Part shown: positions 6,206 to 56,367 of the stretch, piece after piece
How the letters are laid out: each line of letters opens with the position of its first letter
How positions within the stretch are numbered: position 1 is the first letter of the stretch
Assembly (NCBI GenBank): GCA_002070355.1
Contig: MWDC01000001.1
Location: 67,994-131,993 of the forward strand
Length of the DNA: 64,000 nt
Reading direction: 5' to 3'
Source: Parcubacteria group bacterium ADurb.Bin159
Lineage (GTDB): Bacteria; Patescibacteriota; Patescibacteriia; UBA2591; MWDC01
The notes under the pieces: model-generated
Told to the model about the DNA's origin: nothing
The model's database searches: none
The model's input: only the letters and a program-made list of their open reading frames with translations
Program-made: the position numbers and the translations under genes

Positions 6206-6309
6206 AGCTAAATAAAAATTTAGGGTTCACAACCCTAAATTTGAAAATTCGTCCTAAAAGCCAATGTTTATGCGGGTTTGCGGAGGTCGATTTTTGGGGA
6301 CTATCCCCC
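6206..6309 (+). repeat. Repeat family A, copy 1
   Basis: aaatttagggttcacaaccctaaattt (10-bp stem hairpin) ...ccaatgtttatgcgg... ggggactatcccc palindrome. Confidence 0.7.
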
Positions 6310-10299: not shown

Positions 10300-10380
10300 T
10301 TTTCAAATTTATTTAATTTTTGTTTTTAAATCTTTTAAATATTACTTTTAACTTTTCGGCGATGGCTGTATAACTTTATA

Positions 10381-10407
10381 TTATAAAATTTTATAAAGTT
10401 CGTCAAC
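10381..10407 (-). promoter_or_regulatory. Candidate sigma-70 promoter (minus strand TTGACG-N15-TATAAT) inside the extended repeat
   Basis: Reverse complement reads TTGACGaactttataaaatttTATAAT, about 85 bp upstream of the 9154..10299 start. The same motif recurs at 22699-22725. Confidence 0.4.
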
Positions 10408-10429
10408 ATCTAATAATGTATAAAAAGAA

Positions 10430-10522
10430 AAATTTAGGGTCCACAACCCTAAATTTAAAAATTCGTCCTGAAAGCCAATGTTAATGCAATGTTTCTGTGG
10501 TCTCTTTCTGGGGACTGTCCCC
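10430..10522 (+). repeat. Repeat family A, copy 2. An ~90-bp extension upstream (10340-10429) is shared with copy 5.
   Basis: Near-identical to copy 3 (12098-12201). Confidence 0.75.
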
Positions 10523-15873: not shown

Positions 15874-16144
15874 TACAATAAATTAATCTATTAGTTTAAT
15901 AAAAATTTCTTTCTTCGTCAACAATGTTTATAGTAAAAAAATAACTCCACAAATAGTTCAGCGGTAGGCAAAAATTCGAAAAGTTATCCAAAAAGATTGC
16001 CTCGCTTCGCTTGGGCTCGGCAGAAGTAAATTCTCACCGCCTCAAATAAAACAAAAACAAAACCCTTGCCAAAATATGGTAAGGGGTCAATTTTCTCCGA
16101 ATTGTGAACAATATTAGAACAACTATTTCTTCTACTAATAATAA

Positions 16145-16237
16145 AAATTTAGGATCCACAACTCTAAATTAAAAAATTCGCCCTAAAAGCCAATGTTAAT
16201 GCGGTATTCTCGTAGTCTCTTTCTGTAAACTGTCTCC
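16145..16237 (+). repeat. Repeat family A, copy 4 (left flank of the defence island)
   Basis: aaatttaggatccacaactctaaatt...ccaatgttaatgcggtattctcgtagtctctttctgtaaactgtctcc. Confidence 0.7.
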
Positions 16238-16431
16238 AAATGCGTCCCCGAATGCAAAATTATAAAATTATTCTTCTGTTTTTTGTAAAATCAATCTCAT
16301 AATTAAACCTGATAAATATAAAAACGCTTCCGTATCTTCCAATTAAAAAGACAAAAGCAATGATAACAAAGATTTTCAAACCCCACTTAAAAGCTAATGT
16401 CTCAACAAAACCTTCTAAACCATAAAAACAA

Positions 16432-17124
16432 TTATTTCTTTTGATTAGTTGTATAATCACATTTCGGGTAATTAGAGCATCCGTAAAATTCTCCAAATTT
16501 GCCAGTTTTTTTCACTAAATTTCCGCCACAGCATGGGCAAATTCGAGACGCTTCTCTTGCCTTATCTTTATCCTTTTTAGCCATTTTGATATACCGAATA
16601 AGTTTGTATCCATCTATAAGTTCAATTGGCTTATCTTCAGCAAATTTCTCAGCTTCAAGTGTAAATTTATTTGTGGTAATAAAATATGCCTTTCCATTAG
16701 CAATATGGTCAGCCAAAGCACCATAGAAATCTCTGACATCGCCAACCGTTACCTCTGAGGTTATAAACTTTTTGCATTGAATGTAGCTTTTTACTCCGTC
16801 TTTTTCAATAATAACGTCAATGCCTCCGTCGTGCGATCCGCCGACTGCTTTAGATTTGTAGCCAAGCCGCGAAAACAAATCGGCAATATAATCCTCAAAT
16901 TCCGATGGCTTCATGCCACGAAGCCATTGCAATAGATCACGATCCGAACGCCATTTTTCTCCTTTTCTGAATTTTCGGCGAATATGCCAATTATCAATTT
17001 CCAAATTAAGCCAATAAAAGAATAATTTCATAACAACAATCGCCAATAAAACTGCCCAAAGCGGCCATAGCTTCCATAAAATCGGTAGTAAATTTTTAAT
17101 TATTTCCCAGAAATTAATTTGCAT
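16432..17124 (-). CDS. Membrane-anchored Mrr-cat (PD-(D/E)XK) restriction-endonuclease-like protein with a C-terminal topoisomerase-type C4 zinc ribbon
   Basis: N-terminal TM helices, then DLFSRLGYKSKAVGGSHDGGIDVIIEKDGVKSYIQCKKF (Mrr_cat signature D..D..QCK), then CPCCGG...CSNYPKC. Confidence 0.65.
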   Translation of the reverse strand: MQINFWEIIKNLLPILWKLWPLWAVLLAIVVMKLFFYWLNLEIDNWHIRRKFRKGEKWRSDRDLLQWLRGMKPSEFEDYIADLFSRLGYKSKAVGGSHDGGIDVIIEKDGVKSYIQCKKFITSEVTVGDVRDFYGALADHIANGKAYFITTNKFTLEAEKFAEDKPIELIDGYKLIRYIKMAKKDKDKAREASRICPCCGGNLVKKTGKFGEFYGCSNYPKCDYTTNQKK

Positions 17125-17130
17125 ATAATT

Positions 17131-20100
17131 TTAGTTTATAATCTCCTCCAATCTCCAAAAAGTGCTTCCACCTTCACGAATCAAATCGTCGATAAGTTTA
17201 TAAGTATCACCTTTTGTTTCGGCATTTTCATAGAGAGTCTTAATTGCCCCAAACCATTCCTCGTCATACATAAATGGCATGCGCATTTTACCACCTCGCA
17301 CATCACCTTCAAGTAAAGAAAGACGGGCAATCTCCAACGTATCTTTAGGTGCAGCTTTAGCCAATTCATTGATAGACTTAGTGAGAGCGTAATCCCATTC
17401 CAAAACACCCTTAGTTTTTTCTAAGGTCGCTTTTATTTGTCCAGCTAACCAGGCTGGTTCAAAGATTTTTTTCTCAAGATTCATCCAAAATCCAAACGCA
17501 ACAAATAGCTTCGGGTCGTCATAATTCTTAAGCAACCATTCCCAAAATTCAGTTAATCTTTTTTTAATTGCTGGGTCTTTTTTCAACTGCTCATTTACAC
17601 GATCATCATCGCCAGAAATGAACATCCGCCCGATAAAACTGATAAACTTGCTTTGCCGTTCAACATCTCGCTTCCAGAATTTCTTGAAAAGAGAATGATC
17701 AAACCCGAATTTTTCATGATAGACAACAAACGCCAACGCCAAATGAACAGCTATTCCTTCCTTTAGTTCTTTGAAATATTTGCGTTTTGAGTCCTCGTTG
17801 CCAGTCAAACTTAAGCCACGCTCATATAATTTTTGGAATTCTTGATCAAAGAATATTTCCTCATAAAGATTATTAGCAAGATATCCTTCCCAAGCAGCAA
17901 GATAAAGGTGTTTTTTAGTCGCTTCTTCTGGAAAAATTTGAGTCAAAAGCCCATGTATCCAATCTCTGTCACGGAAGTAGAAAGATGGTAGATAATATCC
18001 AAACATAAACATTAAGGCACGAGTATCTTCTTTTTTTAAGACTCTCTCATAGAGCTCCTTAATGTCTACGCTAATTTTAATCTTATCATCTTTTGAAAAT
18101 TGCTTTCCGTCTTGGTAAACAAACAACACAAAAGCCTGAAACGCCCGACCACGCACCGAATTAATCGCCATCGTAAACGGATCACTAACATAATTTTCTT
18201 CCTTATCGCCAGGGGAATGGGTCTTTATCGTCGCTGTTCCTAGCTCTTCGTCTTGTGGTTCTGGATCGGGGTATACTAAAAGATAGCTGAGAATCTCGAA
18301 AAGCTGACTGCGGTATTTGGAGAAATCTATAAGAATTTTACCGTCGTTTTCACTCAATAATTCTTGCAGGACATCCGTCATCACCGAGTGCACTCCAGTC
18401 CAACTCAAAAGCCATGCGTCAAACTTCTCTCGTTCCCTGATTTTATGGTTAAAGGCTTTTGCAATACCCGAATCCTTAATAGCAATAAAAACTTCTATCA
18501 GTTTATCCCACTGGATATCTGCCGCCTTTGTTTTGTCAGCACGTATAGCTTCTTGAATGCCTCGAAAAAACGAGTAAGTATAATGCTCGTCGAGAACATC
18601 CCTCTCAAAAAATAAACTGGCGTTCTGGATATAATCCTGTAATCGCTTAGCAATATCAACACGCAATTGTTCCTCTACGCCTTTAGCATTTAAGGGATTC
18701 AAAAAATCATCACTTGTGTTCTCTTTGCTCAAAGCTTCTGGCTTCCAGTCATTTCTTAATTTTTTGGCAATGTCAGCAATGGAAAGTTTACTAAATTCCT
18801 CTTGTGAAACTGCAGCTCTTGGTTTTACAAAACCGCTCACTATTTTTCCAATGGACGGTTCGGGTTCAAAAGTAGGATCACATTTTTTACCGAATATTTT
18901 TTCACAATCTTCTTTTTCTTCTGAAGTCAAAGAGTCATAAATACTGGAAAGAATCTGCCAGCCATCGCGCCTATACCATTGTTCTTCTTTTTTATCTTCA
19001 CGACTTTGTCCAAAATGCTTAAAGACATTCGATACATATTCACGCTGATAATCGAAATTGAGGACATTAAAGCTCTGTTTAAGGGCTTTCTTGTACTCTG
19101 TTCCAGATTCAATCTCATAATAATGTTTACCATCCTCCATCACCTCAAATAATTTAAAAAAGGACGCCTGTAATTCTGCCTGAAAAGCAACGGGACACAA
19201 ACTCAAAACAAAAAGACGCAGTCGCCACATCAACCTGCTTTCTGGTAAGGTTTGAATATATTTCTTATAAACCTCTCTGACCAATTCTGATTTGTCACAA
19301 TTATTGCCAATTAGTCTTTGACTGAGTGCTTTAATGGTCACTACTAAATCTTTGACGTTTTCTTGATCTGAATAATGTTTTTCATCGCCCAATTCCAAAG
19401 AAAAAAAATCAACATCAAAAAGATAAAAAGGGTCATGAATCGGAAATACTTCATTCTTCTCGGCGTCTTCGCCCAAACGCACGATTGCCGCCATCGTTCT
19501 TGTTGTAATCTCTAATGCTTTTTCAAGATATTGATCGCCTACAGCCACTAAATACTCAAAGACTTTCGTGTAAGAAAGGTCTGTGAAATAAAAAGGATTA
19601 TCCGATGGATAATCACGAGAAGTTGGTTTTGTTTCTTCTTTTGCTCTCACAGTAAGCACTGCTTCGGCAAGGACCAAGATATTCTCATAATCCTTAGCAG
19701 CGGCAAGTGTTTGGAATATTTTTTTATAATCAAATCCCCATTGATTAAATACGCTCATCAACCGCACCCAACCATCATCACGAATTTTCGGCACTATTCT
19801 CGCTAACTGCTCCGCTGGCAGAGAACTGCAAATTCTCAAAAATTGATCGACAATTTCGGGATTAAAATTATCTTTTGGGATAGAAACCGAAAGCATAATA
19901 TCTACCACTTCTTTCGCTTTTTTCTCCGCTATTCTTACAAGATAATTCAGTTCTGGGGTTGTTCGATATCCATATCTCGTTGGATCGTCGACTTTCTGTT
20001 TAATCACATCTAAGAGCCCATTATTCCAAAGCCAATCAAGCCAATTCTCATCTGCTTTTGTAAAAAAATATTGTCGTGCATCAAGATTTAAACCAATAAG

Positions 20101-20145
20101 TTCTCGAATTTTCTCTGGATCAAATTTTGCTGATTGTTTATCCAT
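17131..20145 (-). CDS. Large (1004 aa) hypothetical protein; no ATPase, nuclease or other recognisable motif
   Basis: Long uninterrupted ORF packed 5-6 bp from its neighbours in the R-M/Mrr operon. Predicted mostly alpha-helical. No Walker A. Confidence 0.6.
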   Translation of the reverse strand: MDKQSAKFDPEKIRELIGLNLDARQYFFTKADENWLDWLWNNGLLDVIKQKVDDPTRYGYRTTPELNYLVRIAEKKAKEVVDIMLSVSIPKDNFNPEIVDQFLRICSSLPAEQLARIVPKIRDDGWVRLMSVFNQWGFDYKKIFQTLAAAKDYENILVLAEAVLTVRAKEETKPTSRDYPSDNPFYFTDLSYTKVFEYLVAVGDQYLEKALEITTRTMAAIVRLGEDAEKNEVFPIHDPFYLFDVDFFSLELGDEKHYSDQENVKDLVVTIKALSQRLIGNNCDKSELVREVYKKYIQTLPESRLMWRLRLFVLSLCPVAFQAELQASFFKLFEVMEDGKHYYEIESGTEYKKALKQSFNVLNFDYQREYVSNVFKHFGQSREDKKEEQWYRRDGWQILSSIYDSLTSEEKEDCEKIFGKKCDPTFEPEPSIGKIVSGFVKPRAAVSQEEFSKLSIADIAKKLRNDWKPEALSKENTSDDFLNPLNAKGVEEQLRVDIAKRLQDYIQNASLFFERDVLDEHYTYSFFRGIQEAIRADKTKAADIQWDKLIEVFIAIKDSGIAKAFNHKIREREKFDAWLLSWTGVHSVMTDVLQELLSENDGKILIDFSKYRSQLFEILSYLLVYPDPEPQDEELGTATIKTHSPGDKEENYVSDPFTMAINSVRGRAFQAFVLFVYQDGKQFSKDDKIKISVDIKELYERVLKKEDTRALMFMFGYYLPSFYFRDRDWIHGLLTQIFPEEATKKHLYLAAWEGYLANNLYEEIFFDQEFQKLYERGLSLTGNEDSKRKYFKELKEGIAVHLALAFVVYHEKFGFDHSLFKKFWKRDVERQSKFISFIGRMFISGDDDRVNEQLKKDPAIKKRLTEFWEWLLKNYDDPKLFVAFGFWMNLEKKIFEPAWLAGQIKATLEKTKGVLEWDYALTKSINELAKAAPKDTLEIARLSLLEGDVRGGKMRMPFMYDEEWFGAIKTLYENAETKGDTYKLIDDLIREGGSTFWRLEEIIN

Positions 20146-20150
20146 ATTAC

Positions 20151-20756
20151 TTATTTACCTCCATTTATATCTTCTATTAGCTGAGGATTTATTCTCAAAA
20201 CCTCATCAAGCATTTGATGCACATCAAGCTGCCTTGTCAATGCCTTATTCATAATTTTTTCAAACTCCACTAAAAGTTTTTCAAACTCAACCTTATTAAA
20301 AGAAGAAAAATCAAAATTTTTATCCCATTGAGGATCAACTCCATGATGCGTTATATCATTAAGTTTTTTCCACAGAGGTTCTACTTTACTGCTATAGAAA
20401 TTTTTATCAAAACTTTCATTAGAACTTTCATCAAAATTTTTATCAACCGTTACAGAGCCAAAATTTTTAAACGCATCCATTCTCTTACTTGAAACTTGTT
20501 TCACCTGAATACTTAAGAATGGATAAAGAATCTCTCGTAAGGAGTTTGCCGCTTGGGCAATACGATCGGGATTACTTTTACATTCTTCCCTAATAGCAAA
20601 AACGGCACCTCGAAACATATCTGAAGGCTTTATTTTTAGTCCTCCTCGCTCATGCCACTCATCTAGGCGTCTACATAAATTTTCTTGTCCATCGGTTAAA
20701 CGCACGGGTGGGAGAGCATTATTTCCTATAGATTGTAGTGATGCATCACCGCCCAT
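20151..20756 (-). CDS. Hypothetical 201-aa protein with a DKNF(D/Y)xSS triple repeat
   Basis: ORF-track protein with 3-5 bp spacing to the restriction endonuclease upstream and the 1004-aa ORF downstream. Confidence 0.5.
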   Translation of the reverse strand: MGGDASLQSIGNNALPPVRLTDGQENLCRRLDEWHERGGLKIKPSDMFRGAVFAIREECKSNPDRIAQAANSLREILYPFLSIQVKQVSSKRMDAFKNFGSVTVDKNFDESSNESFDKNFYSSKVEPLWKKLNDITHHGVDPQWDKNFDFSSFNKVEFEKLLVEFEKIMNKALTRQLDVHQMLDEVLRINPQLIEDINGGK

Positions 20757-20759
20757 AAA

Positions 20760-21665
20760 TTATATATCTCTCAAGATATTCCTTAAAAAACCTTTTTTGA
20801 TGAAATTAATATTTAAGACATAATCCATTTGTTCAATTGCCTTCCTGATTTGATTTTGTCCTTGTCGCCAGCCATTTCCATCGGTAATCCAAACAAATTG
20901 CCAGCCACTATTTTGGAGCTCTCTTTGCCGATTTATGTAGGCATCAACAATCTCTTGAGGTTTTGAACCCTGCCCGCTGTAAAAATTAACTTCCATTGAT
21001 AGAAGTTTTGTTCCTTTTTTGATCGCAAAATCGGGAGTTCTATACCGGAGTTTCTTCGGGATTTTTACACCGCGTTCTTCGAATTTACTGAACTTCCCCT
21101 TAGGGAATATCTCAATATTCTTAAATTCTTTGGTGATATTTTGAAGTTCTTCCTCTACCACTTTTTCCATAAAACTACCACTTCGATTCTTACGTGCATT
21201 GCTATCCAAACCTACTTCAACCCCTAAGAGATAATCGTTAAGAACTCGAATGATTTTGAATAACTCTTGGATACCACTTTTTTTTACAAATTGAATAAAT
21301 TTCTTGATGTCACTTGGGGTTAAATCTTTTGAACAATCAAAACAACATACTTGATTTTTGCTTATATCCTCTAGTACATCAAATTTCTCATCACGCATTG
21401 CAACAAGAAGTGGTAAAACCCTTGCTGTCTTAGGGTATTCTGTTAAAATTTTCTCTAAATCTTTATCAAAATTTTTGGATTGAGTAAGTGTTCCCAAAAT
21501 TCCAATTTCAACTTTGTATTTCTCTACATTTGATTTAACCTTTTTCCAATTTACAAAAAAATCGTAAGTGCGATTAGTAGATAATAGTGAGCCAATAAAT
21601 GCTTCGTTAATCTGCTCAATATTAGTAAAACCAAAAAATGATTTATATGTTTGTATTTTTGCCAT
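20760..21665 (-). CDS. Type II restriction endonuclease, DpnII/MboI family (predicted GATC specificity)
   Basis: GVEVGLDSNARKNRSG and EVNFYSGQGSKP...WITDGNGW...LNINF align with R.DpnII motifs recalled from memory. Confidence 0.7.
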   Translation of the reverse strand: MAKIQTYKSFFGFTNIEQINEAFIGSLLSTNRTYDFFVNWKKVKSNVEKYKVEIGILGTLTQSKNFDKDLEKILTEYPKTARVLPLLVAMRDEKFDVLEDISKNQVCCFDCSKDLTPSDIKKFIQFVKKSGIQELFKIIRVLNDYLLGVEVGLDSNARKNRSGSFMEKVVEEELQNITKEFKNIEIFPKGKFSKFEERGVKIPKKLRYRTPDFAIKKGTKLLSMEVNFYSGQGSKPQEIVDAYINRQRELQNSGWQFVWITDGNGWRQGQNQIRKAIEQMDYVLNINFIKKGFLRNILRDI

Positions 21666-21670
21666 ATTGC

Positions 21671-22513
21671 TTAAATTAATTTAATAAACATTTGCTTGCG
21701 CTTAATTAAGTCTTTGAGTCGCTTTTTTGAAAGTTCAAGATATTTTTTCTCATTATCAATCCCTATAAATTTTCTATCGTATAGAATAGCAACTAAACCA
21801 GTAGTAGAGCTCCCTGCGAAAGGATCGAGTATTATGTCGCCAGGATTTGTGCTTGACAGAATAATTCTTTTCAAAAGCTCCATTGGCTTTTGTGTGGGGT
21901 GTTTACCAAATATTTTTTCTTCTGGCTTGGGAGTCCCTATTGCCCACACCGAACGCATTTGTTTATTTTGCCGATGGATAAGGTCGTTTCTAAACGCACG
22001 CATCTGCTCGTAATTGAACACGTGCTTTGCTTTCTTTTCTTTACGTGCCCACAATAATGTTTCGTGGCTGGCAGTAAAATAACGGCAACTTAAATTGGGA
22101 GAAGCATTGGGTTTATACCAGGAGATATCATTTAAGATATGATAACCGCTTAATTGAAGTGCGTAACCACATTGATAAATTGAGTGATAAGTCCCACTAA
22201 TCCAAATTGTACCGTAAGGTTTAAGAACTCGACGGCAAGCTTGAACCCAAGTAATATGAAAATCTAAATCCTTTTGAAAACCTTTGCTTTTGTCCCAATC
22301 TCCCTTATTAACACTTACACGTCTGCCAGCGTGAACGCTAAAACCACCATTAGAAAGATTATACGGTGGATCAGCAAAAATCATATCAATCGAATTGTCT
22401 GGAAGCTGTTTCAAAATCGACAGATAATCTGAACAGTATAAAACAAAATTACCTTCAGAAAAATAAGGTTTTTTCTTGATAGAAGATAGAACTTTTTGAG
22501 AATTAGTTTCCAT
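21671..22513 (-). CDS. Beta-class N6-adenine DNA methyltransferase, M.DpnA (DpnIIB)-like
   Basis: Motif IV IFADPPYNLSNGG precedes motif I DPFAGSSTTG. Strong similarity to M.DpnA through ...NLSCRYFT...KHPTQKP.... Confidence 0.8.
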   Translation of the reverse strand: METNSQKVLSSIKKKPYFSEGNFVLYCSDYLSILKQLPDNSIDMIFADPPYNLSNGGFSVHAGRRVSVNKGDWDKSKGFQKDLDFHITWVQACRRVLKPYGTIWISGTYHSIYQCGYALQLSGYHILNDISWYKPNASPNLSCRYFTASHETLLWARKEKKAKHVFNYEQMRAFRNDLIHRQNKQMRSVWAIGTPKPEEKIFGKHPTQKPMELLKRIILSSTNPGDIILDPFAGSSTTGLVAILYDRKFIGIDNEKKYLELSKKRLKDLIKRKQMFIKLI

Positions 22514-22698
22514 AAATATGTCTTTTTTTCAACTTGGATTTATTAGTTTATTTTTTCCTGTCTACTGTTTATTATAACAAATAATTCCTAAAAATATAAT
22601 TAAAGAGGCCTTAATTTTTGAAAAATTATTGAATTGTCTTACTGATTAATTTCATTTATATTGCTTTTAACTTTTCCGTGGTGGTCGTATAACTTTAT

Positions 22699-22725
22699 AT
22701 TATAGAACTTCATAAAGTTCGTCAA
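22699..22725 (-). promoter_or_regulatory. Candidate promoter of the defence operon (minus strand TTGACG-N15-TATAAT)
   Basis: Same promoter-like sequence as 10381-10407; lies in the extended copy of repeat A upstream of the MTase gene. Confidence 0.35.
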
Positions 22726-22751
22726 TATCTAATAATGCATAAAAAATAAAA

Positions 22752-22843
22752 AAATAGGGCTCACAACCCTAAATTAAAAAATTCGTCTTAACAGCCAATG
22801 TTAATGCGGTATTCTCGTAATCTCTTTTTGAGGACTGTCCCCA
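22752..22843 (+). repeat. Repeat family A, copy 5 (right flank of the defence island); the extension at 22660-22751 is shared with copy 2.
   Basis: aaatagggctcacaaccctaaatt...ccaatgttaatgcggtattctcgtaatctctttttgaggactgtcccc. Confidence 0.7.
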
Positions 22844-22919: not shown

Positions 22920-23684
22920 ATGAATATGCCGAAAGTAAAATTTACTGACATTCCATTATCCAAAGAAACTGATTGGATGTATGGTTTTTTGTTCAAAAAT
23001 GAATGGGATTGGGGAAGATATATTTTAAAAAAACATCCTAAAATTAAAAAAGTTTTTTCTTATAAGACGGAAGCAGAACGAGTTAATTTTTTAAGAAATT
23101 ATATAATTCAATTTAAAAAAGATAATCAAGAACTAATAGAAAAAAGTAAAACGGAATACCAAGAAGTATGGAAGGAAATGGAAAAAGATTTTTTTATTAT
23201 TCTGTCAGAAATTTTAAAAATTGACTGGCCTCAAAATAGAAAAGTGATAAAAGCAATGCTCTCGATTAATCCAATTTGCCCTCGTTTTTTAAACGATTGG
23301 AGTTTTTCTATTTTCTATAATTATAAAAAGATAAGTTATGCAATGGAAGTAATTATGCATGAATGCTGTCATTTTTTATATTTTGAAAAATGGAAAAAAG
23401 TTTTTCCAAAAACAAACCCAAAAAAGTTTGAGGCACCATGCTTGGAATGGCATTTAAGTGAAATTTTAGCACCAATTATTTTAAATGACCTTAGGATTAA
23501 AAAATTATTGGGACGAAAAGCAGATTTTTACGAAGAACATAAAAAAATAAAAATTGGGAATAAAACCGTTCCTGAATATTTTAACGATTTATACAAAAAA
23601 AATAATATAGATAAAAATTTTGACGAATTCCTAAAAGAATCTTATAAGGCAATCAAAAAGAATAAGGTGCTATTTGAAATATAA
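22920..23684 (+). CDS. Hypothetical protein with an HExxH-like motif (MHECCH)
   Basis: 254-aa ORF; possible metallopeptidase-like zinc site. Otherwise uncharacterised. Confidence 0.4.
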   Translation: MNMPKVKFTDIPLSKETDWMYGFLFKNEWDWGRYILKKHPKIKKVFSYKTEAERVNFLRNYIIQFKKDNQELIEKSKTEYQEVWKEMEKDFFIILSEILKIDWPQNRKVIKAMLSINPICPRFLNDWSFSIFYNYKKISYAMEVIMHECCHFLYFEKWKKVFPKTNPKKFEAPCLEWHLSEILAPIILNDLRIKKLLGRKADFYEEHKKIKIGNKTVPEYFNDLYKKNNIDKNFDEFLKESYKAIKKNKVLFEI

Positions 23685-23785: not shown

Positions 23786-24008
23786 TTTATACGAAAACAA
23801 ATTTCTGCCAAACAATTGCTTGTGTCTAGAAAAGCAATAAAAGGGAAGTAAAATTTTTAACAATAAAAACAAAGGAGTAAACAAAATGGGCAAAAAATCT
23901 TATTGAAAAGCTTATAATGAACTTACAACAGAAAGCCGAGGAAGTGCAAAGGTCGTTTTGAATTAGCGAAAGAGGATTACTAATAAAGGGCGAAAATCTA
24001 ATGTTTAA

Positions 24009-24052
24009 AATGAAAACACCGTTTGATACGGTGTTTTAAACTTCAAAGTGTT
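24009..24052. repeat. Hairpin repeat C, copy 1
   Basis: aatgaaaacaccgtttgatacggtgttttaaacttcaaagtgtt (10-bp stem). The second copy is at 24959-25002. Confidence 0.6.
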
Positions 24053-24229
24053 CTAATTTACTCCCCATACCGGATGCATTTAAAATGGTTAACTGGGAAA
24101 AAACAAGAAAAAAATTAGGACTTTTTGAGACAGAATCTTGGACATGGGAACCAACCAAAGCTTCAAAAGAACTTATTATGTCTGGTTGTGAAGTATCTAT
24201 AAATAACCTACTACCGCTTTTGAAATATA

Positions 24230-24733
24230 TTAATTGATTAGGAATTTTAAGAATTTCGGTTTAATCTCTTCTTTCGGTTTAGTCTCTCCTGGCTTTATTC
24301 TTTGGGCTTCTGCTATCCTATTATTTGAAATGCCTTCGCCTTCTTGAACTTTTCCAGAAAATCGTCCTTCGTAATCTCTGATGATTCTTTGGAAGGCGCT
24401 TTTTCCTTCAATTCTGGTTTCTCCGCCGACGAATTCTCCTTTTCCTTTTGTTGATTTAATGATTGTTGTTTCATACTTTTGTTTTAATTTATTTATATTT
24501 TCAGCGAGATTCGACCCTGAGTCAAAAATGACTGCCTTATTCTCGCTAACAATTGTTCTATATTGTAAACCAACATCATCAAGTGCTTTTCTTAAATTTT
24601 CCATTGTCTTTATTTCAGAAATTTCTATTGCATAAAGAGTATCAATCCCGGCTCCATCTACTATAAATGGAATAACAGATTTTTGATATGAAACTAACCC
24701 CTCCTTGCTGCAGAATATTTTAATGTCTCCCAA
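24230..24733 (-). CDS. Hypothetical protein
   Basis: 167-aa ORF between the two copies of hairpin repeat C. No recognisable motif. Confidence 0.35.
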   Translation of the reverse strand: MGDIKIFCSKEGLVSYQKSVIPFIVDGAGIDTLYAIEISEIKTMENLRKALDDVGLQYRTIVSENKAVIFDSGSNLAENINKLKQKYETTIIKSTKGKGEFVGGETRIEGKSAFQRIIRDYEGRFSGKVQEGEGISNNRIAEAQRIKPGETKPKEEIKPKFLKFLIN

Positions 24734-24958
24734 TCTATCTTCTTATCATAGATTGTCATTAAAGAATTTTCTGCTCCGAATTGTGAACAACGTTATAAGG
24801 ATAATTCAACAGCAAGCTGAGTATATTTATATACTAGATTTAAATTCACAGGCTCAATAATATGTTATCACCTTTTACCCCACCCTGCTACTCATTATAT
24901 TATTATAACACAAAACTCCCAGAAATGGAAGTTTTGTGCCAAAGTGGCAATCTACAGA

Positions 24959-25002
24959 AATGAAAACACCGTTTGATACGGTGTTTTAAACTTCAAAGTG
25001 TT
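24959..25002. repeat. Hairpin repeat C, copy 2
   Basis: A 44-bp repeat matching 24009-24052 except for the final base; sits immediately next to the tRNA-Asn 3' end. Confidence 0.6.
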
Positions 25003-25008
25003 TAAAGT

Positions 25009-25084
25009 TGGCTCCGGGGGTGGGACTCGAACCCACGACAGGCTGCTTAACAGGCAGCTGCTCTAACCACTGAGCTACCCCGGA
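25009..25084 (-). tRNA. tRNA-Asn (GTT), CCA encoded
   Basis: Manual cloverleaf: acceptor UCCGGGG/CCCCGGA, D-arm GCUC-AGUGGUUA-GAGC, anticodon loop CU-GUU-AA, T-arm GUGGG-UUCGAGU-CCCAC, discriminator G plus CCA. Confidence 0.85.
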
Positions 25085-34896: not shown

Positions 34897-36135
34897 TTAT
34901 TTTTTTATTTTTTTTATTTGTGAATCAGCGGAACCTTTATAAAATTGCAATTTAATAAGTTGACCAACAGACAATTGCGCCGCGTCTTTAATAATCTTCT
35001 CCCCATCAAAAACAAGGCTATATCCTAAACGCAATTGTTTTTTAGGATCCTGAATTTTTATTTTTTCTTCGCAATTTTTAATTTGTTGATTAGCTGTATC
35101 TATAGCCATAGTAAATTTTTCTTTTAGTGTCTTTGTTGATTTGGCTAAATTCTCTTTTTGATTATTTATGGTTTGCCCAATAATGGAAAAAATTCTTTTA
35201 AACCCTTCTATTAATAAGGGGAATTTGTGATAAATGGATGAAAACTGGTTTTTTATCTCTTCGGAATTTTGAGTCAATTTTGATTCTTGATAAAAAAGCA
35301 ATTCTTCAAATGAATTTAATAATTTTGCTTGTAAATTATAAATATATTGTTTCGTTTCTCGCCAAGAATGTGAAATAAATTGGGCAGCAGCAGTAGGAGT
35401 GGAAACAGATTTATCAGCGGCTAACGTGGCTAGAGGGATATCTCTTTCATGCCCAATGCCGCATAAAACAGGGATTTTCGAACCGGCAATAGCTCTAACA
35501 ACAGCTTCATTATTAAATGCCTGTAAACTTTCCCAACTCCCCCCTCCTCTAATGACAACTAAAACCTCACAATCTGATTTTTTATTAAACCAATCAATAG
35601 CTTTAATTAAATCCGGCACTGCTTCTTGTCCTTCTACTCGTGAATCAAAAAATTTTATTTTAAAACCGATATTTTCCAAATTAGCATTAAAATCATGAAT
35701 AGCTTCTCCGTAACGAGAACTAATTAAACCTATTTTAGTGGGAAAAACAGGAATCTTCTTTTTTCTTTCTGGGGCAAATAATCCCTCTTTCTCTAATTTT
35801 TTCTTTAAAAACTCATAGGCTTTTTGTAAAACCCCCTCTCCCACCAATTCTACTGATTCTACTTTTATAGACAATCTACCTATTGGCTTCCAAATATTTG
35901 GCTCTCCTCCAATAATAACTTCCATTCCTTCCTGAAATTCAATGCCCATCATCTTATAAACTGAACGAAAAATTAAGCAATTTAAAACAGCCGGCTCTCC
36001 ATCAGAATCTTTTAAATCAAAATAAATTGTTTTTTCTCTTTTTTCAATCCTGCTTATTTCGCCCTTAATTTTCGCTTTTTCTCCTTCTAAAACAATATTT
36101 AATTTGTCTAAATAATTACTAACGCTATAAACCAT
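34897..36135 (-). CDS. xseA: Exodeoxyribonuclease VII large subunit
   Basis: N-terminal OB fold (KIKGEISRIEKREKTIYFDLKD) and a catalytic core (VIRGGGSWESLQAFN). Confidence 0.8.
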   Translation of the reverse strand: MVYSVSNYLDKLNIVLEGEKAKIKGEISRIEKREKTIYFDLKDSDGEPAVLNCLIFRSVYKMMGIEFQEGMEVIIGGEPNIWKPIGRLSIKVESVELVGEGVLQKAYEFLKKKLEKEGLFAPERKKKIPVFPTKIGLISSRYGEAIHDFNANLENIGFKIKFFDSRVEGQEAVPDLIKAIDWFNKKSDCEVLVVIRGGGSWESLQAFNNEAVVRAIAGSKIPVLCGIGHERDIPLATLAADKSVSTPTAAAQFISHSWRETKQYIYNLQAKLLNSFEELLFYQESKLTQNSEEIKNQFSSIYHKFPLLIEGFKRIFSIIGQTINNQKENLAKSTKTLKEKFTMAIDTANQQIKNCEEKIKIQDPKKQLRLGYSLVFDGEKIIKDAAQLSVGQLIKLQFYKGSADSQIKKIKK

Positions 36136-36142
36136 ATTTTAA

Positions 36143-36212
36143 GAGGGGACTGTCCCCTTTTTTAACCATATTTTAAGGGGGGACTTATTTTAAGGGGGGA
36201 CTGTCCCCTTTT
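36143..36212. repeat. Cluster of three GGGGACTGTCCCC palindromes with local tandem duplication
   Basis: Copies at 36145-36157, 36177-36190 (degenerate) and 36196-36208, each followed by a T-run. Confidence 0.6.
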
Positions 36213-36343
36213 TTAGGCTCTCTACAAGTCTTTATTTATGCGGCTTTCCGAGCAAATTTTTCTGTTTTGACATTTTTTTTACCTATTTTTGAAATTAAAA
36301 AATGAAAGCCAAAAAAATTTTTTATAAAAGAAAAAATAATTTT

Positions 36344-36435
36344 GGTAAAAAAAGTGTCAAATTTGATTTTTTGAGGAGATAACCCTTTATTGATGCGGGT
36401 TTGCGAAGGTCGGAAAAAGGGGACTGTCCCCTTTT
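36344..36435 (+). repeat. Repeat family B, copy 1
   Basis: ggtaaaaaaagtgtcaaatttgattttttgaggagataaccctttattgatgcgggtttgcgaaggtcggaaaaaggggactgtcccctttt. Near-identical copy at 45021-45112. Confidence 0.7.
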
Positions 36436-37747
36436 AGAGAGTGAGATCTTGCTCTTCACCGCGACGCAAAATTGTTAAATGGATTGCCTCCCCTTTTGAT
36501 TTTTGAGAAACAAGATAAGTTAAATTATTTTTTTTATTTATATTTTGCCCATCAAATTTTATGATTACATCGGCATTGCGAATTCCCGCTTTATAAGCGG
36601 CTAATCCCGGCGTAGGATTACCATAAACAATAGCTCCTTCTTTAAGATCGTGGAAAAGAGCGCTGGAAAGACCCGGCGCTTCTTCAATTAAAAGATAGTC
36701 AATTCCCAAAGAGGGATAAAAAATTTCTTTGTTTTCTTTTAGATAAGAAATAGCTTTTAGAAATTGCCAAGAGGGAATATATTTTTTATTATCTGAACTC
36801 GATGAACCAACTAATTGTCCTTTTAAATTAAAAATAAAACTTCCTCCTAGAGTATTCGGCGAGATATTATTTAAGAGAAGTGATTCGGAAAAATAATCTG
36901 TAGAACGAACCAAATCTTCAGTTTTAGTAATGTCTCGCCAATCTGACCGAACGATTGCAGAAACATACCATCTTAAAAATTTATCTGCCACTAATACCGT
37001 TTGCCCTTGATTGATTGAAGAAAACGGAGCTAATTCTAAAAATGGCAAATCATTGCCATTAATTTTAATAAAAGTTAATCCTGTCCGTTTATCTCTTATA
37101 ACTTTATCTAAATCGTAGATTTCTCCCCCATTTATTATAACTTCCCATTTTTTATTTTCTGTTTCTTCTACAGCATTTTCTTCTATGTCTATTTCTTCAA
37201 AAGGATAAGGGGTTAAAATCCACCCATCAGAACTAATAATTAACCCCATTGATTTTATTTGCCAAGGAGCGTAAATTTGGTCTAAAAAAGAAGGATTATC
37301 TTTTAATTCTTTTTTAGGGAAAATGCTTACTAAACTTTTTTCAATGTCTCCCGTCAATTCATTTATTCTTATATCACTACTCACGGTAATATTTTTTTCT
37401 GTAATTTCAGTAACATGTTTTTCTGGAAAATATTTAGTTAAATTAAATTCTTTCCCCCAGGGAAAAACAATTTTGTCACGGGAAAAAATAAACATCGAAC
37501 CTAACGCTCCAGCAATAAAACCAATAATTAAGGTTAAAATAATTAAGCCAAAAATAGACCTACCCCCTAAAGAAGCGGGTTTCTCTAAATGGTCAAATGG
37601 CTTATGATAAAAACGCCCCACATCTTCCCTGATTTCTTCTTTATTTCTTTGAGGAACTCTTTCTTTTTTGATTTTAATTGATGACGATTTATCAACAATA
37701 CCATCGTTTACTGTTATTTTTTGATGACTTGATTTTTCTCTACTCAT
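36434..37747 (-). CDS. Trypsin-like (HtrA/S1C-like) domain protein with a C-terminal PDZ domain, possibly catalytically divergent
   Basis: N-terminal TM, a GGSFIF (GxSGG-like) segment and a PDZ-like C-terminus. No obvious catalytic His. Confidence 0.45.
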   Translation of the reverse strand: MSREKSSHQKITVNDGIVDKSSSIKIKKERVPQRNKEEIREDVGRFYHKPFDHLEKPASLGGRSIFGLIILTLIIGFIAGALGSMFIFSRDKIVFPWGKEFNLTKYFPEKHVTEITEKNITVSSDIRINELTGDIEKSLVSIFPKKELKDNPSFLDQIYAPWQIKSMGLIISSDGWILTPYPFEEIDIEENAVEETENKKWEVIINGGEIYDLDKVIRDKRTGLTFIKINGNDLPFLELAPFSSINQGQTVLVADKFLRWYVSAIVRSDWRDITKTEDLVRSTDYFSESLLLNNISPNTLGGSFIFNLKGQLVGSSSSDNKKYIPSWQFLKAISYLKENKEIFYPSLGIDYLLIEEAPGLSSALFHDLKEGAIVYGNPTPGLAAYKAGIRNADVIIKFDGQNINKKNNLTYLVSQKSKGEAIHLTILRRGEEQDLTL

Positions 37748-45016: not shown

Positions 45017-45020
45017 TTTT

Positions 45021-45112
45021 GGTAAAAAAAGTGTCAAATTTGATTTTTTGGCGAGATAACCCTTTATTGATGCGGATTTGCCGAGGTCGGAAAAAGGGGA
45101 CTGTCCCCTTTT
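45021..45112 (+). repeat. Repeat family B, copy 2
   Basis: Near-identical to 36344-36435. Overlaps the annotated tgt start and the murG C-terminus. Confidence 0.7.
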
Positions 45113-46077
45113 AGGAGATGGCGAATTTCTTTTAAAAGATTTTCTTTGGTTTGCTCTTCTCTAAAAAGAGCGCGAACAGCTTTTTTTTCTAAAAAATAAT
45201 AAGCATTGGCTTCTTGATGAGTGTGGGGAATAGGCAAAACAATGGCCGGCTTGCCTAAAAAAGATAATTCAGATAAAGTGCCCATACCAGCGCGGCAAAT
45301 AACTATATCTGCCACCTTATAAGCCAAAGACATTTCTTTGTCTAAAAATTCAAATTGATGATAATTTTCATTTTGAAAAACTCGAGATTTTCCTTTGCCG
45401 GTTAAATGAATAATTTGAGAAAAAGAAGTAAGTTCAGGCAATAAATCAAAAATTAACTGGTTAATAAAAGCAGCGCCTTTCCCTCCCCCTAAAACTAAAA
45501 TAACTGGCAAATTTGGCTTTAAGGAAAAAAATTTTTTTGCTTCTTCTTCCGACGCGTTTAATAACTCTTGCCTTACCGGATTACCCGTCAAAATAGTTTT
45601 TTTAGCCGGAAAATCTTTTAACGAAGGAGGCAAACTTACGGTAATTTTATAAGCGAAAGGAGTAAGAAGGCGGTTAGTCAAACTGGGAATTATATCTTGC
45701 TGATGAATAAAAAGAGGAACCCTTAAAAACCAAGCAGCTATCCCCACAGGCACAGAAGTGAAACTACCTGCTGATAAAACCATATCTGGCTTAAAATTTT
45801 TAATTATTTTTAAGGATTGAAAAAAACCAAAAATAGTTAAAAATGGGGAGATTAAATTTTTAAGAGAAAAATAGCGGCGCCATTTTCCAGCATAAATACT
45901 TTGATAAGAAATACCCTCTTTTCTAACTAATTCTTCTGCCACATCATCATTTTTAGGCCCAATAAAAAGAAACTCTGTTTCAGGTTCTTTCTTTTTAATT
46001 TCCGATCGCATAGCTAAAAGTGGAGTTATAGAACCGCCTGTACCTCCGCCAACTAATAAAATTTTTCTCATAATCAA
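45064..46077 (-). CDS. murG: Undecaprenyldiphospho-muramoylpentapeptide beta-N-acetylglucosaminyltransferase
   Basis: LLVGGGTGGSITPLLAM (G-loop) and C-terminal GT28 motifs. The last ~15 codons read through the repeat-B palindrome. Confidence 0.8.
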   Translation of the reverse strand: MIMRKILLVGGGTGGSITPLLAMRSEIKKKEPETEFLFIGPKNDDVAEELVRKEGISYQSIYAGKWRRYFSLKNLISPFLTIFGFFQSLKIIKNFKPDMVLSAGSFTSVPVGIAAWFLRVPLFIHQQDIIPSLTNRLLTPFAYKITVSLPPSLKDFPAKKTILTGNPVRQELLNASEEEAKKFFSLKPNLPVILVLGGGKGAAFINQLIFDLLPELTSFSQIIHLTGKGKSRVFQNENYHQFEFLDKEMSLAYKVADIVICRAGMGTLSELSFLGKPAIVLPIPHTHQEANAYYFLEKKAVRALFREEQTKENLLKEIRHLLKGDSPLFPTSANPHQ

Positions 46078-56204: not shown

Positions 56205-56294
56205 AATTTAGATTATAACAAAAAAGAAAAAAAGAAAAAGGGCAACTTAATGTTGCTCTTATTAAATACAATGTTTCCCCTCTTTTTTGTTTAG

Positions 56295-56367
56295 AGGGGT
56301 TGGCTGGAATCGAACCAGCATGAGCAGGCTTTCGCGCCTACTGCGTTGACCACTCCGCCACAACCCC
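56295..56367 (-). tRNA. tRNA-like gene with canonical acceptor, D and T arms but a non-canonical (6-nt) anticodon loop; isotype undetermined
   Basis: Acceptor GGGGUUG/CAACCCC, T-arm GCUGG-UUCGAUU-CCAGC. The central hairpin UAGGC-GCGAAA-GCCUG does not give a standard 7-nt loop. Confidence 0.5.

Follow-up and report, generated by a model that had tools for sequence, protein, structure and literature searches.

A putative three-module defence operon in a Patescibacteria genome, with a DpnII-family restriction-modification pair ahead of a predicted Dsr1/Avs7-type sensor pair and an Mrr-type nuclease

What do five closely packed genes do together when two of them encode a recognizable restriction-modification (R-M) pair, one encodes a nuclease of the Mrr kind, and the two in between encode proteins that are called hypothetical across thousands of metagenomic genomes? 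The genes lie on the minus strand of a 64,000-nucleotide (nt) stretch of contig MWDC01000001.1, referred to here as the window. All positions are those of the window, and L-numbers are labels of the homologous loci and contigs that were compared with it. The largest of the five products, of 1004 amino acids (aa), is 100% identical to OQB44548.1 (BWY03_00070) from 'Parcubacteria group bacterium ADurb.Bin159', and the source is a metagenome-assembled genome of the Patescibacteria (Candidate Phyla Radiation, CPR) with about 33% guanine plus cytosine (GC). We read the locus as one horizontally transferred defence operon built from three separable modules, namely restriction, a capsid-triggered suicide by RNase and an Mrr nuclease, and we put the probability of this reading at about 0.6.

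The operon would start with an N6_N4 DNA methyltransferase of 280 aa (21671-22513), the modification half of the R-M pair, followed by a DpnII-family type II restriction endonuclease of 301 aa (20760-21665). Next come an all-helical protein of 201 aa in what we call the effector position (20151-20756) and the 1004-aa protein, a HEAT-like alpha-solenoid (17131-20145). The last gene (16432-17124) encodes a nuclease of 230 aa with an Mrr_cat domain and a zinc ribbon. An earlier note on this DNA, made from the letters and a list of open reading frames (ORFs), had described five minus-strand ORFs lying 3-6 nt apart, and by ORF coordinates the gaps are indeed 5, 3, 5 and 6 nt. Because of these short gaps, and because site prediction placed a single promoter-like site and one terminator-like site upstream of the run, the five genes most likely form one co-transcribed operon. 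Scans with Pfam, PADLOC and NCBIfam also confirmed the DpnII endonuclease and the Mrr_cat/zinc-ribbon protein that the note had named.

The same note had left the 201-aa and 1004-aa proteins as uncharacterised partners of unknown kind. Neither matches a Pfam family, so that this much of the description holds, and both can now be placed, as a HEPN-like effector and a Dsr1/Avs7-type sensor. Homologues of the 1004-aa protein were found to fall into two length classes, of about 1000 aa and about 1160-1210 aa. In BLASTP searches the 201-aa protein aligned to the N-terminal extension of 170-200 aa that sets the long class apart (E about 1e-26). Of 44 non-redundant genome loci, which come from many phyla, about 36 had a homologue of the 201-aa protein either fused to the sensor homologue or encoded immediately upstream of it (an iterated profile was used for detection and gave 40 ORFs, four duplicate loci included). 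Since the small protein matches the N-terminus of the long homologues and is fused or adjacent in so many loci, the two window proteins are, by homology, one split protein, and the 201 aa are its detached N-terminal domain. This is a large family, in which 2298 clusters (50% identity) matched the 1004-aa protein at E <= 1e-3, and 419 of them at E <= 1e-30.

The 1004-aa protein was matched by the PADLOC model of Dsr1 (PDLC04166; 7.7e-19), with residues 290-975 aligned to positions 588-1197 of the 1227 in the profile. This match covers only the part of Dsr1 that lies C-terminal to the SIR2 domain, and scans with Pfam and NCBIfam detected neither a SIR2 domain nor an NTPase family in the 201-aa or the 1004-aa protein. 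The sensor-family profile was also colinear with residues 597-1380 of a Halocatena plasmid protein, in which residues 180-340 are a STAND NTPase. The AlphaFold2 model of a fused relative with 79% identity was an all-helical solenoid (predicted local distance difference test score, pLDDT, 87). Fold searches of the Protein Data Bank (PDB) with the sensor returned generic HEAT-repeat folds only, and a PDB sequence search with the sensor profile gave nothing useful. At the level of sequence homology, the 1004-aa protein thus corresponds to the C-terminal sensor region of Dsr1.

According to a 2026 paper (PMC13581612), Dsr1 and a HEPN-like protein lacking an NTPase have the sensor of Avs7, the phage major capsid protein triggers both SeAvs7 and EcDsr1, and split proteins occur. 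By its homology to the sensor region of Dsr1, the 1004-aa protein would bind a phage structural protein, most likely the major capsid protein. The pair resembles Dsr1 in its large alpha-helical C-terminal sensor region and in the arrangement of an N-terminal effector followed by the sensor without an NTPase. It differs in that SIR2 is replaced by a HEPN-like helical domain of about 190 aa, which in the window is a separate gene. The link to Avs7 is an indirect one, through the homology to Dsr1 and through the colinear match of the sensor family to the C-terminal part of a STAND NTPase protein; the window protein itself has no STAND NTPase. By description, the pair also resembles a protein of Streptomyces sp. 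NBC_00271, termed 'HEPN-like RNase + Avs7 sensor' (PMC13581612). Sensor homologues were also found on four IMG/VR contigs (L144-L147) that are predicted to be of viral or prophage origin.

We then considered what the 201-aa protein may do. Among 64 homologues, G50, N62, D64, H137, H138, F165, D178 and H180 were invariant, and R30, R74, R175 and Q176 were conserved in at least 90%. The residues R175-Q-L-D-V-H180 form an Rx4H motif. In it the arginine is followed by a polar residue and stands at the start of the C-terminal helix (176-189) of the AlphaFold2 model. The model is all helical (pLDDT 87). An Rx4-6H motif in which the R precedes a polar residue, placed at the start of the C-terminal helix, is the hallmark of HEPN RNases (PMC3710099). 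We put the chance that the 201-aa protein is an RNase of the HEPN type at roughly two in three; such an enzyme would be metal-independent. No HEPN model in Pfam, NCBIfam or PADLOC matched the family. Pfam pP_pnuc_1 ('predicted pPIWI-associating nuclease') was matched weakly by the N-terminal part of 34 of the 64 members, with one long relative reaching 26.6 bits against a cut-off of 26.3, and PADLOC Aga_Nuclease matched three of the 64 weakly. A literature search for pP_pnuc_1 or PF18165 returned no papers, and a PDB sequence search with the 201-aa profile gave nothing useful.

Other loci showed that the effector position upstream of the sensor is swappable. At the position of the 201-aa gene we found a CHAT protease (L034 470-1537), and a family of proteins of about 205-240 aa with an N-terminal transmembrane (TM) helix (L006 9315-9932, L014 9345-9959, L022 9246-9965 and L024 9319-9960). 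In L027 (8725-9846) an FRG domain is fused to a 201-aa-like domain directly upstream of the sensor homologue. Because such proteins take its place elsewhere, they support an effector role for the 201-aa protein.

The first two genes encode the R-M pair. The methylase matched Pfam PF01555 (N6_N4; 2e-59) and PADLOC MTase_II (2e-98), and its nearest solved structures were CcrM (6e-60) and then DpnA (4e-33); by these matches it is a beta-class N6-adenine DNA methyltransferase. The endonuclease, whose gene begins 5 nt downstream of the methylase gene, matched Pfam PF04556 (DpnII; 4e-80) over 275 of 278 profile positions and PADLOC REase_II (4e-70), and a PDB sequence search with it gave nothing useful. 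As the endonuclease belongs to the DpnII family, the pair is predicted to target GATC, which we consider likely. The earlier note had seen an M.DpnA-like methylase beside a DpnII endonuclease. The pairing of a DpnII-family endonuclease with a methylase stands, but the methylase is nearer to CcrM than to DpnA. The locus therefore resembles the DpnII/MboI-type systems in having a DpnII-family endonuclease beside an adenine methylase, and differs from them in having a single beta-class (N6_N4) methylase. The classic DpnII cassette carries a Dam-like DpnM together with DpnA.

The position of the sensor pair behind the R-M genes was found to be a recurrent one. We scanned with Pfam the three genes upstream and the three genes downstream of the sensor pair in the 44 genome loci. 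Matches to methylase families numbered 20 among 81 upstream proteins and 1 among 99 downstream proteins (Fisher p = 4e-7; the Pfam families were summed, and a few upstream proteins may count twice). Res subunits and type IIG enzymes were also found among the upstream genes. In 17 of the 44 loci an R-M gene stood directly upstream on the same strand, and these genes were of diverse types: DpnII in two loci, HpaII with a C5 methylase in one, an EcoRI-type methylase with a GmrSD/HNH protein in one, type IIG enzymes like Eco57I/MmeI in eight, type III Res subunits in four and a type ISP enzyme in one. The gaps between the R-M gene and the sensor pair were mostly 0-120 nt, or the genes overlapped. 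On the IMG/VR contigs, where R-M genes were labelled by their similarity to those of the genome loci, an R-M gene stood directly upstream of the sensor in three of four cases. An R-M system followed by the sensor pair is thus a recurrent and directional order. A link between Avs7-type sensor proteins and R-M operons is not mentioned in the main text of PMC13581612.

Defence genes cluster generally, and each of the modules occurs without the others. Moreover, GmrSD, DruA, TOTE and integrases are scattered around the related loci. Such a neighbourhood could bring independent systems side by side by chance, and the order of R-M genes and sensor would then have no meaning beyond shared mobility. 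We hold this to be unlikely. The upstream and downstream counts given above are strongly asymmetric, the spacing is like that of an operon, and the same order recurs with at least five R-M types and again in an independent collection (IMG/VR).

If the order is meaningful, the question is how the two modules are connected. HEPN proteins linked to R-M systems are a known theme, with PrrC as its paradigm (PMC3710099). As in PrrC-EcoprrI (type Ic) and other R-M-linked HEPN proteins, a HEPN-type RNase would here stand in or beside an R-M operon as a second, suicidal defence. One could accordingly propose that the RNase formed by the 201-aa and 1004-aa proteins is kept latent by contact with the R-M enzyme and is freed when a phage anti-restriction protein disables that enzyme. 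This would suit the tight and directional placement of the pair behind R-M genes in 17 of the 44 loci, where stop and start codons often overlap, and it has a precedent in PrrC-EcoprrI and in at least 16 R-M-linked HEPN clades (PMC3710099). However, the upstream R-M types (DpnII, HpaII, IIG, III and ISP) are unrelated and offer no common subunit to bind, the sensor pair has no upstream R-M system in 27 of the 44 loci, and the sensor to which the large subunit is homologous was shown by experiment to respond to a phage capsid protein. PrrC also uses an ABC ATPase for its regulation and is restrained by the R-M system that accompanies it, whereas the regulator here would be a HEAT-like protein sensor, next to R-M partners of many unrelated types. 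Control of the PrrC kind is therefore distinctly unlikely in our view. The lack of a common subunit among the R-M partners instead favours a layered logic, in which a sensor of late phage proteins fires only once restriction has failed.

The fifth gene was considered separately. Its product matched Pfam Mrr_cat (PF04471; 8e-29) and Zn_ribbon_Top1 (2e-15), and PADLOC mREase_IV. An alignment of 32 homologues showed D99, D103, Q116 and K118 (Q116-C-K118) to be invariant, and the four cysteines of the zinc ribbon (C4, Topo-I-type) are conserved in the homologues. By inspection of the sequence, the N-terminal 40 residues are hydrophobic. Neither the Pfam scan nor the inspection detected a reader domain for modified DNA in the protein, and a PDB sequence search with it gave nothing useful. 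The protein has in common with Mrr and the type IV enzymes the Mrr_cat domain with its conserved D...QxK residues. It differs from them in having no N-terminal winged-helix DNA reader, in its length of only 230 aa, and in its N-terminal hydrophobic anchor and C-terminal Topo-I-type zinc ribbon. It is probably a membrane-anchored enzyme of the type IV or modification-dependent kind that targets DNA. The architecture of Mrr_cat and zinc ribbon was present in at least 919 homologous clusters.

In the 44 genome loci the Mrr gene stood beside the sensor pair in a single non-redundant locus, and these neighbourhood counts ruled it out as an obligate partner of the pair. When the loci were sampled from the side of the Mrr gene, this gene was often found to close defence operons headed by R-M genes of type I, II, IIG or III (among them L061, L062, L063, L067, L076, L079, L089, L105 and L131). 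The middle part of these Mrr-terminated operons is variable. It is the sensor pair in L062/L083, L066, L068 and L081, and in others an OLD-like ATPase with DUF2130, a HARE-HTH/PD-(D/E)XK protein, ABC/SMC-like ATPases, or GmrSD with HEPN_Swt1. Hidden sensor homologues might have been expected among the large genes that precede Mrr elsewhere, but a profile search ruled this out. The Mrr_cat/zinc-ribbon protein is thus a separable third module and a frequent last gene.

These counts also bear on the idea that the five genes are one integrated system, in which the sensor would activate the Mrr nuclease as the true effector, with the 201-aa protein serving as an adaptor or regulator and not as an enzyme. 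The Mrr gene does follow the sensor gene by 6 nt and has moved with it as a block, and the order of sensor and then Mrr recurs with other R-M types in the independent metagenome loci just named. Yet the pair and the Mrr gene meet in only the one locus of the 44, and most Mrr homologues lie behind unrelated genes, such as OLD-like ATPases, type I HsdR, GmrSD and PD-(D/E)XK nucleases. Furthermore, the fused one-gene forms consist only of the 201-aa-like domain and the solenoid, with no further domain, and the 201-aa family has strictly conserved polar residues that are typical of a catalytic site. A single integrated system is the least probable of the alternatives that we weighed.

Our preferred reading of three separable modules can be put as a series of steps. 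Incoming DNA that lacks methylation would be cut by the DpnII-family R-M pair, probably at GATC. If a phage evades restriction and goes on to produce its late proteins, the 1004-aa sensor would bind a structural protein, most likely the major capsid protein. This binding would release the 201-aa RNase, and the infection would be aborted. The membrane-anchored Mrr_cat/zinc-ribbon nuclease would add a further layer by targeting DNA. Several points weigh against this reading. The mechanism as a whole is derived from homology and gene context. As the homology to E. coli Dsr1 is distant, the ligand specificity may differ from that of the E. coli protein. The observed-to-expected ratio of GATC in the window is 0.52, a depletion no stronger than that of other 4-nt palindromes, and the methylase is closer to CcrM, which recognizes GANTC, than to DpnA. 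Finally, there are the 27 loci in which the sensor pair has no R-M system upstream.

Each of the modules is of a known kind. Of interest are the split, NTPase-free and HEPN-like member of the Avs7/Dsr1-sensor family in the Patescibacteria, together with the directional coupling of this sensor family to R-M operons and the Mrr_cat/zinc-ribbon gene as their habitual terminal rider. Two hypothetical proteins thereby gain a testable function. The phage defences of the Patescibacteria are poorly known, and the family of capsid sensors formed by Avs7 and Dsr1 would be extended to small genomes of this group, to a split form without an NTPase and to a HEPN-like effector. Where the first line of defence acts on DNA as it enters, a sensor of late phage proteins would be the natural backup, and its recurrent and directional coupling to unrelated R-M types suggests a general design rule. 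With units that are portable and small (two or three genes), this rule lends itself to a direct test. As a tentative extension, which is possible but which we regard as doubtful, sensors of late proteins with a HEPN-like, CHAT or membrane effector would be hard-wired 3' of R-M operons of any type as 'restriction-failure detectors'. Together with the terminal membrane-anchored Mrr_cat/zinc-ribbon nuclease they would form a modular and mobile three-layer cassette that is common in the Patescibacteria and present in many phyla.

Next we asked whether the genes had arrived together. A Candidatus Paceibacter genome (L001/L005) was found to carry the same five genes in the same order. The window and this genome share one aligned block of 6126 nt with 82.7% nucleotide identity, which starts 4 nt upstream of the ATG of the methylase gene and, after a short gap, ends in the remnant of a sixth gene. 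This remnant (16341-16422, minus strand), the downstream end of the transferred DNA, is 82 nt long and has 88% nucleotide identity to L001 13842-13923, and 27 aa of the ORF at 16260-16496 match at 89%. The intact gene in Candidatus Paceibacter encodes 108 aa. The identity of the island proteins to their counterparts in Candidatus Paceibacter was 70-92%, as compared to 60% for the adjacent rpoD and 36% for dnaG. Because the identity of the island is far above that of these flanking genes, the arrival of the block in at least one of the two genomes is, as judged from the sequences, much more recent than the split between them. The sensor family itself is patchily distributed, over Patescibacteria, Nitrospirota, Chloroflexota, Omnitrophota and Gammaproteobacteria.

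The earlier note had called the island compositionally distinct, with 40-50% GC inside and 15-35% outside. The GC contrast turned out to be small: GC content is 36.4% in the island genes and 32.8% in the remainder of the window, a difference of 3.6 points. In 1-kilobase (kb) windows the GC fraction was 0.33-0.39 inside the island and 0.26-0.435 across the whole window, and several of the windows elsewhere were as GC-rich as the island or richer. GC at third codon positions was 0.28-0.34 in four of the five island genes and 0.24 in the 201-aa gene, as compared to 0.24-0.25 in neighbouring genes. With a difference of this size, we rejected GC content as a sign of foreign origin. The island is nevertheless distinct in its tetranucleotide usage. 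Using a strand-symmetric profile, we found that the correlation with the whole window was 0.67-0.69 at 15-23 kb and about 0.90-0.95 elsewhere, and the minimum of the window (0.67) falls at the island.

Taken together, the identity of the block DNA (82.7%) against the protein identity of rpoD (60%) and dnaG (36%), the anomaly in tetranucleotide usage and the patchy distribution of the family make horizontal acquisition of the five-gene block, as the note had proposed, a well-supported interpretation of the sequence. In the comparison of synteny that it had recommended, Candidatus Paceibacter was seen to have the block beside diverged flanks. No empty site was found among contigs of the same species. 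Contigs of the same species from other samples carried the island at 99.5-99.9% identity in all cases, and among contigs that have the neighbouring ABC-transporter protein and reach far enough, all carry the island. Library scans with Pfam and related collections detected no integrase adjoining the island within the window. Two independent short metagenome contigs (L057 and L058) end at 16302, about 40 nt from the block end at 16341. These ends may reflect a presence/absence polymorphism between strains or a break in assembly caused by a repeat.

In Candidatus Paceibacter the block directly follows a tRNA-Asn gene and a gene of the HTH_17 (excisionase) type, and in the window a tRNA-Asn gene is found 2.5 kb from the island. 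Between the two lie a 254-aa ORF on the plus strand (22920-23684) and a 167-aa ORF on the minus strand (24230-24733). Neither had a match in Pfam, NCBIfam or PADLOC, and both are absent from the corresponding place in Candidatus Paceibacter. The 254-aa ORF is among the few plus-strand genes in that part of the window. The 167-aa ORF is flanked by a 52-nt direct repeat (24008-24059 and 24958-25009, 94% identical), the second copy of which abuts the 3' end of the tRNA-Asn gene (25009-25084, minus strand). This repeat pair looks like the attachment-site (att) duplication of a small element integrated at the tRNA-Asn gene.

The five-gene unit is also flanked by two copies of a repeat, here called repeat A, which the earlier note had taken for a double-hairpin element bracketing the island. 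The copies (16143-16237 on the left and 22748-22842 on the right, both on the minus strand) are in the same orientation as described, are 84% identical and have in common an exact core of 26 nt that is unique to them within the window. On the minus strand, the element consists of a GGGGACAGTCCCC hairpin and then a AAATTTAGGG...CCCTAAATTTTT hairpin with a T-run. The right copy, in which a GGGGACAGTCC hairpin is followed by a TAGGGTTGTGAGCCCTA hairpin and the T-run, folds into two hairpins at -22.7 kcal/mol and has a terminator-like site at 22771-22755 (minus strand). It looks, from this predicted fold and site, like an intrinsic terminator that would insulate the operon. In the left copy both hairpins are degenerate. 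It folds at -10.9 kcal/mol, no better than shuffled sequence, and no terminator-like site was predicted there. At best, the left copy would be a weak terminator after the operon.

The right copy continues into a promoter-bearing segment of 94 nt (22658-22751, minus strand) that is duplicated at 10339-10432 with 86% identity. Within it, TTGACG-17-TAATAT (22725-22697) precedes the methylase ATG by about 185 nt, and by this motif the segment is the probable promoter of the five-gene operon. Five copies of repeat A in the same orientation were found between 6 and 23 kb (at 6214, 10428, 12107, 16143 and 22748), and all except the copy at 22748 lie 3' of a minus-strand gene or operon. Repeat A was not found in any of the related loci. 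Judged from its sequence anatomy, it is a terminator-plus-promoter punctuation module of this genome, and it brackets the island only in the way in which it brackets several operons of this genome. We considered repeat A as an att site or border of the island, and rejected it on account of its five dispersed copies, its terminator and promoter anatomy, its position outside the block shared with Candidatus Paceibacter and its absence from the locus of this relative. The island-specific bracket of the earlier note was given up on the same grounds.

The same GGGGACTGTCCCC hairpin as in repeat A was also observed in other intergenic repeats at 36135-36438 and 45017-45114 (98 nt with 95% identity, and three copies of 30 nt). 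As this hairpin recurs in other intergenic repeats, the terminator-hairpin elements may be a genome-wide family. An Rfam scan of the window returned tRNAs only. One tRNA gene (56294-56367, minus strand) was given a four-base anticodon, 'cgaa', with no amino acid assigned, by ARAGORN, and scored 51 bits with Rfam.

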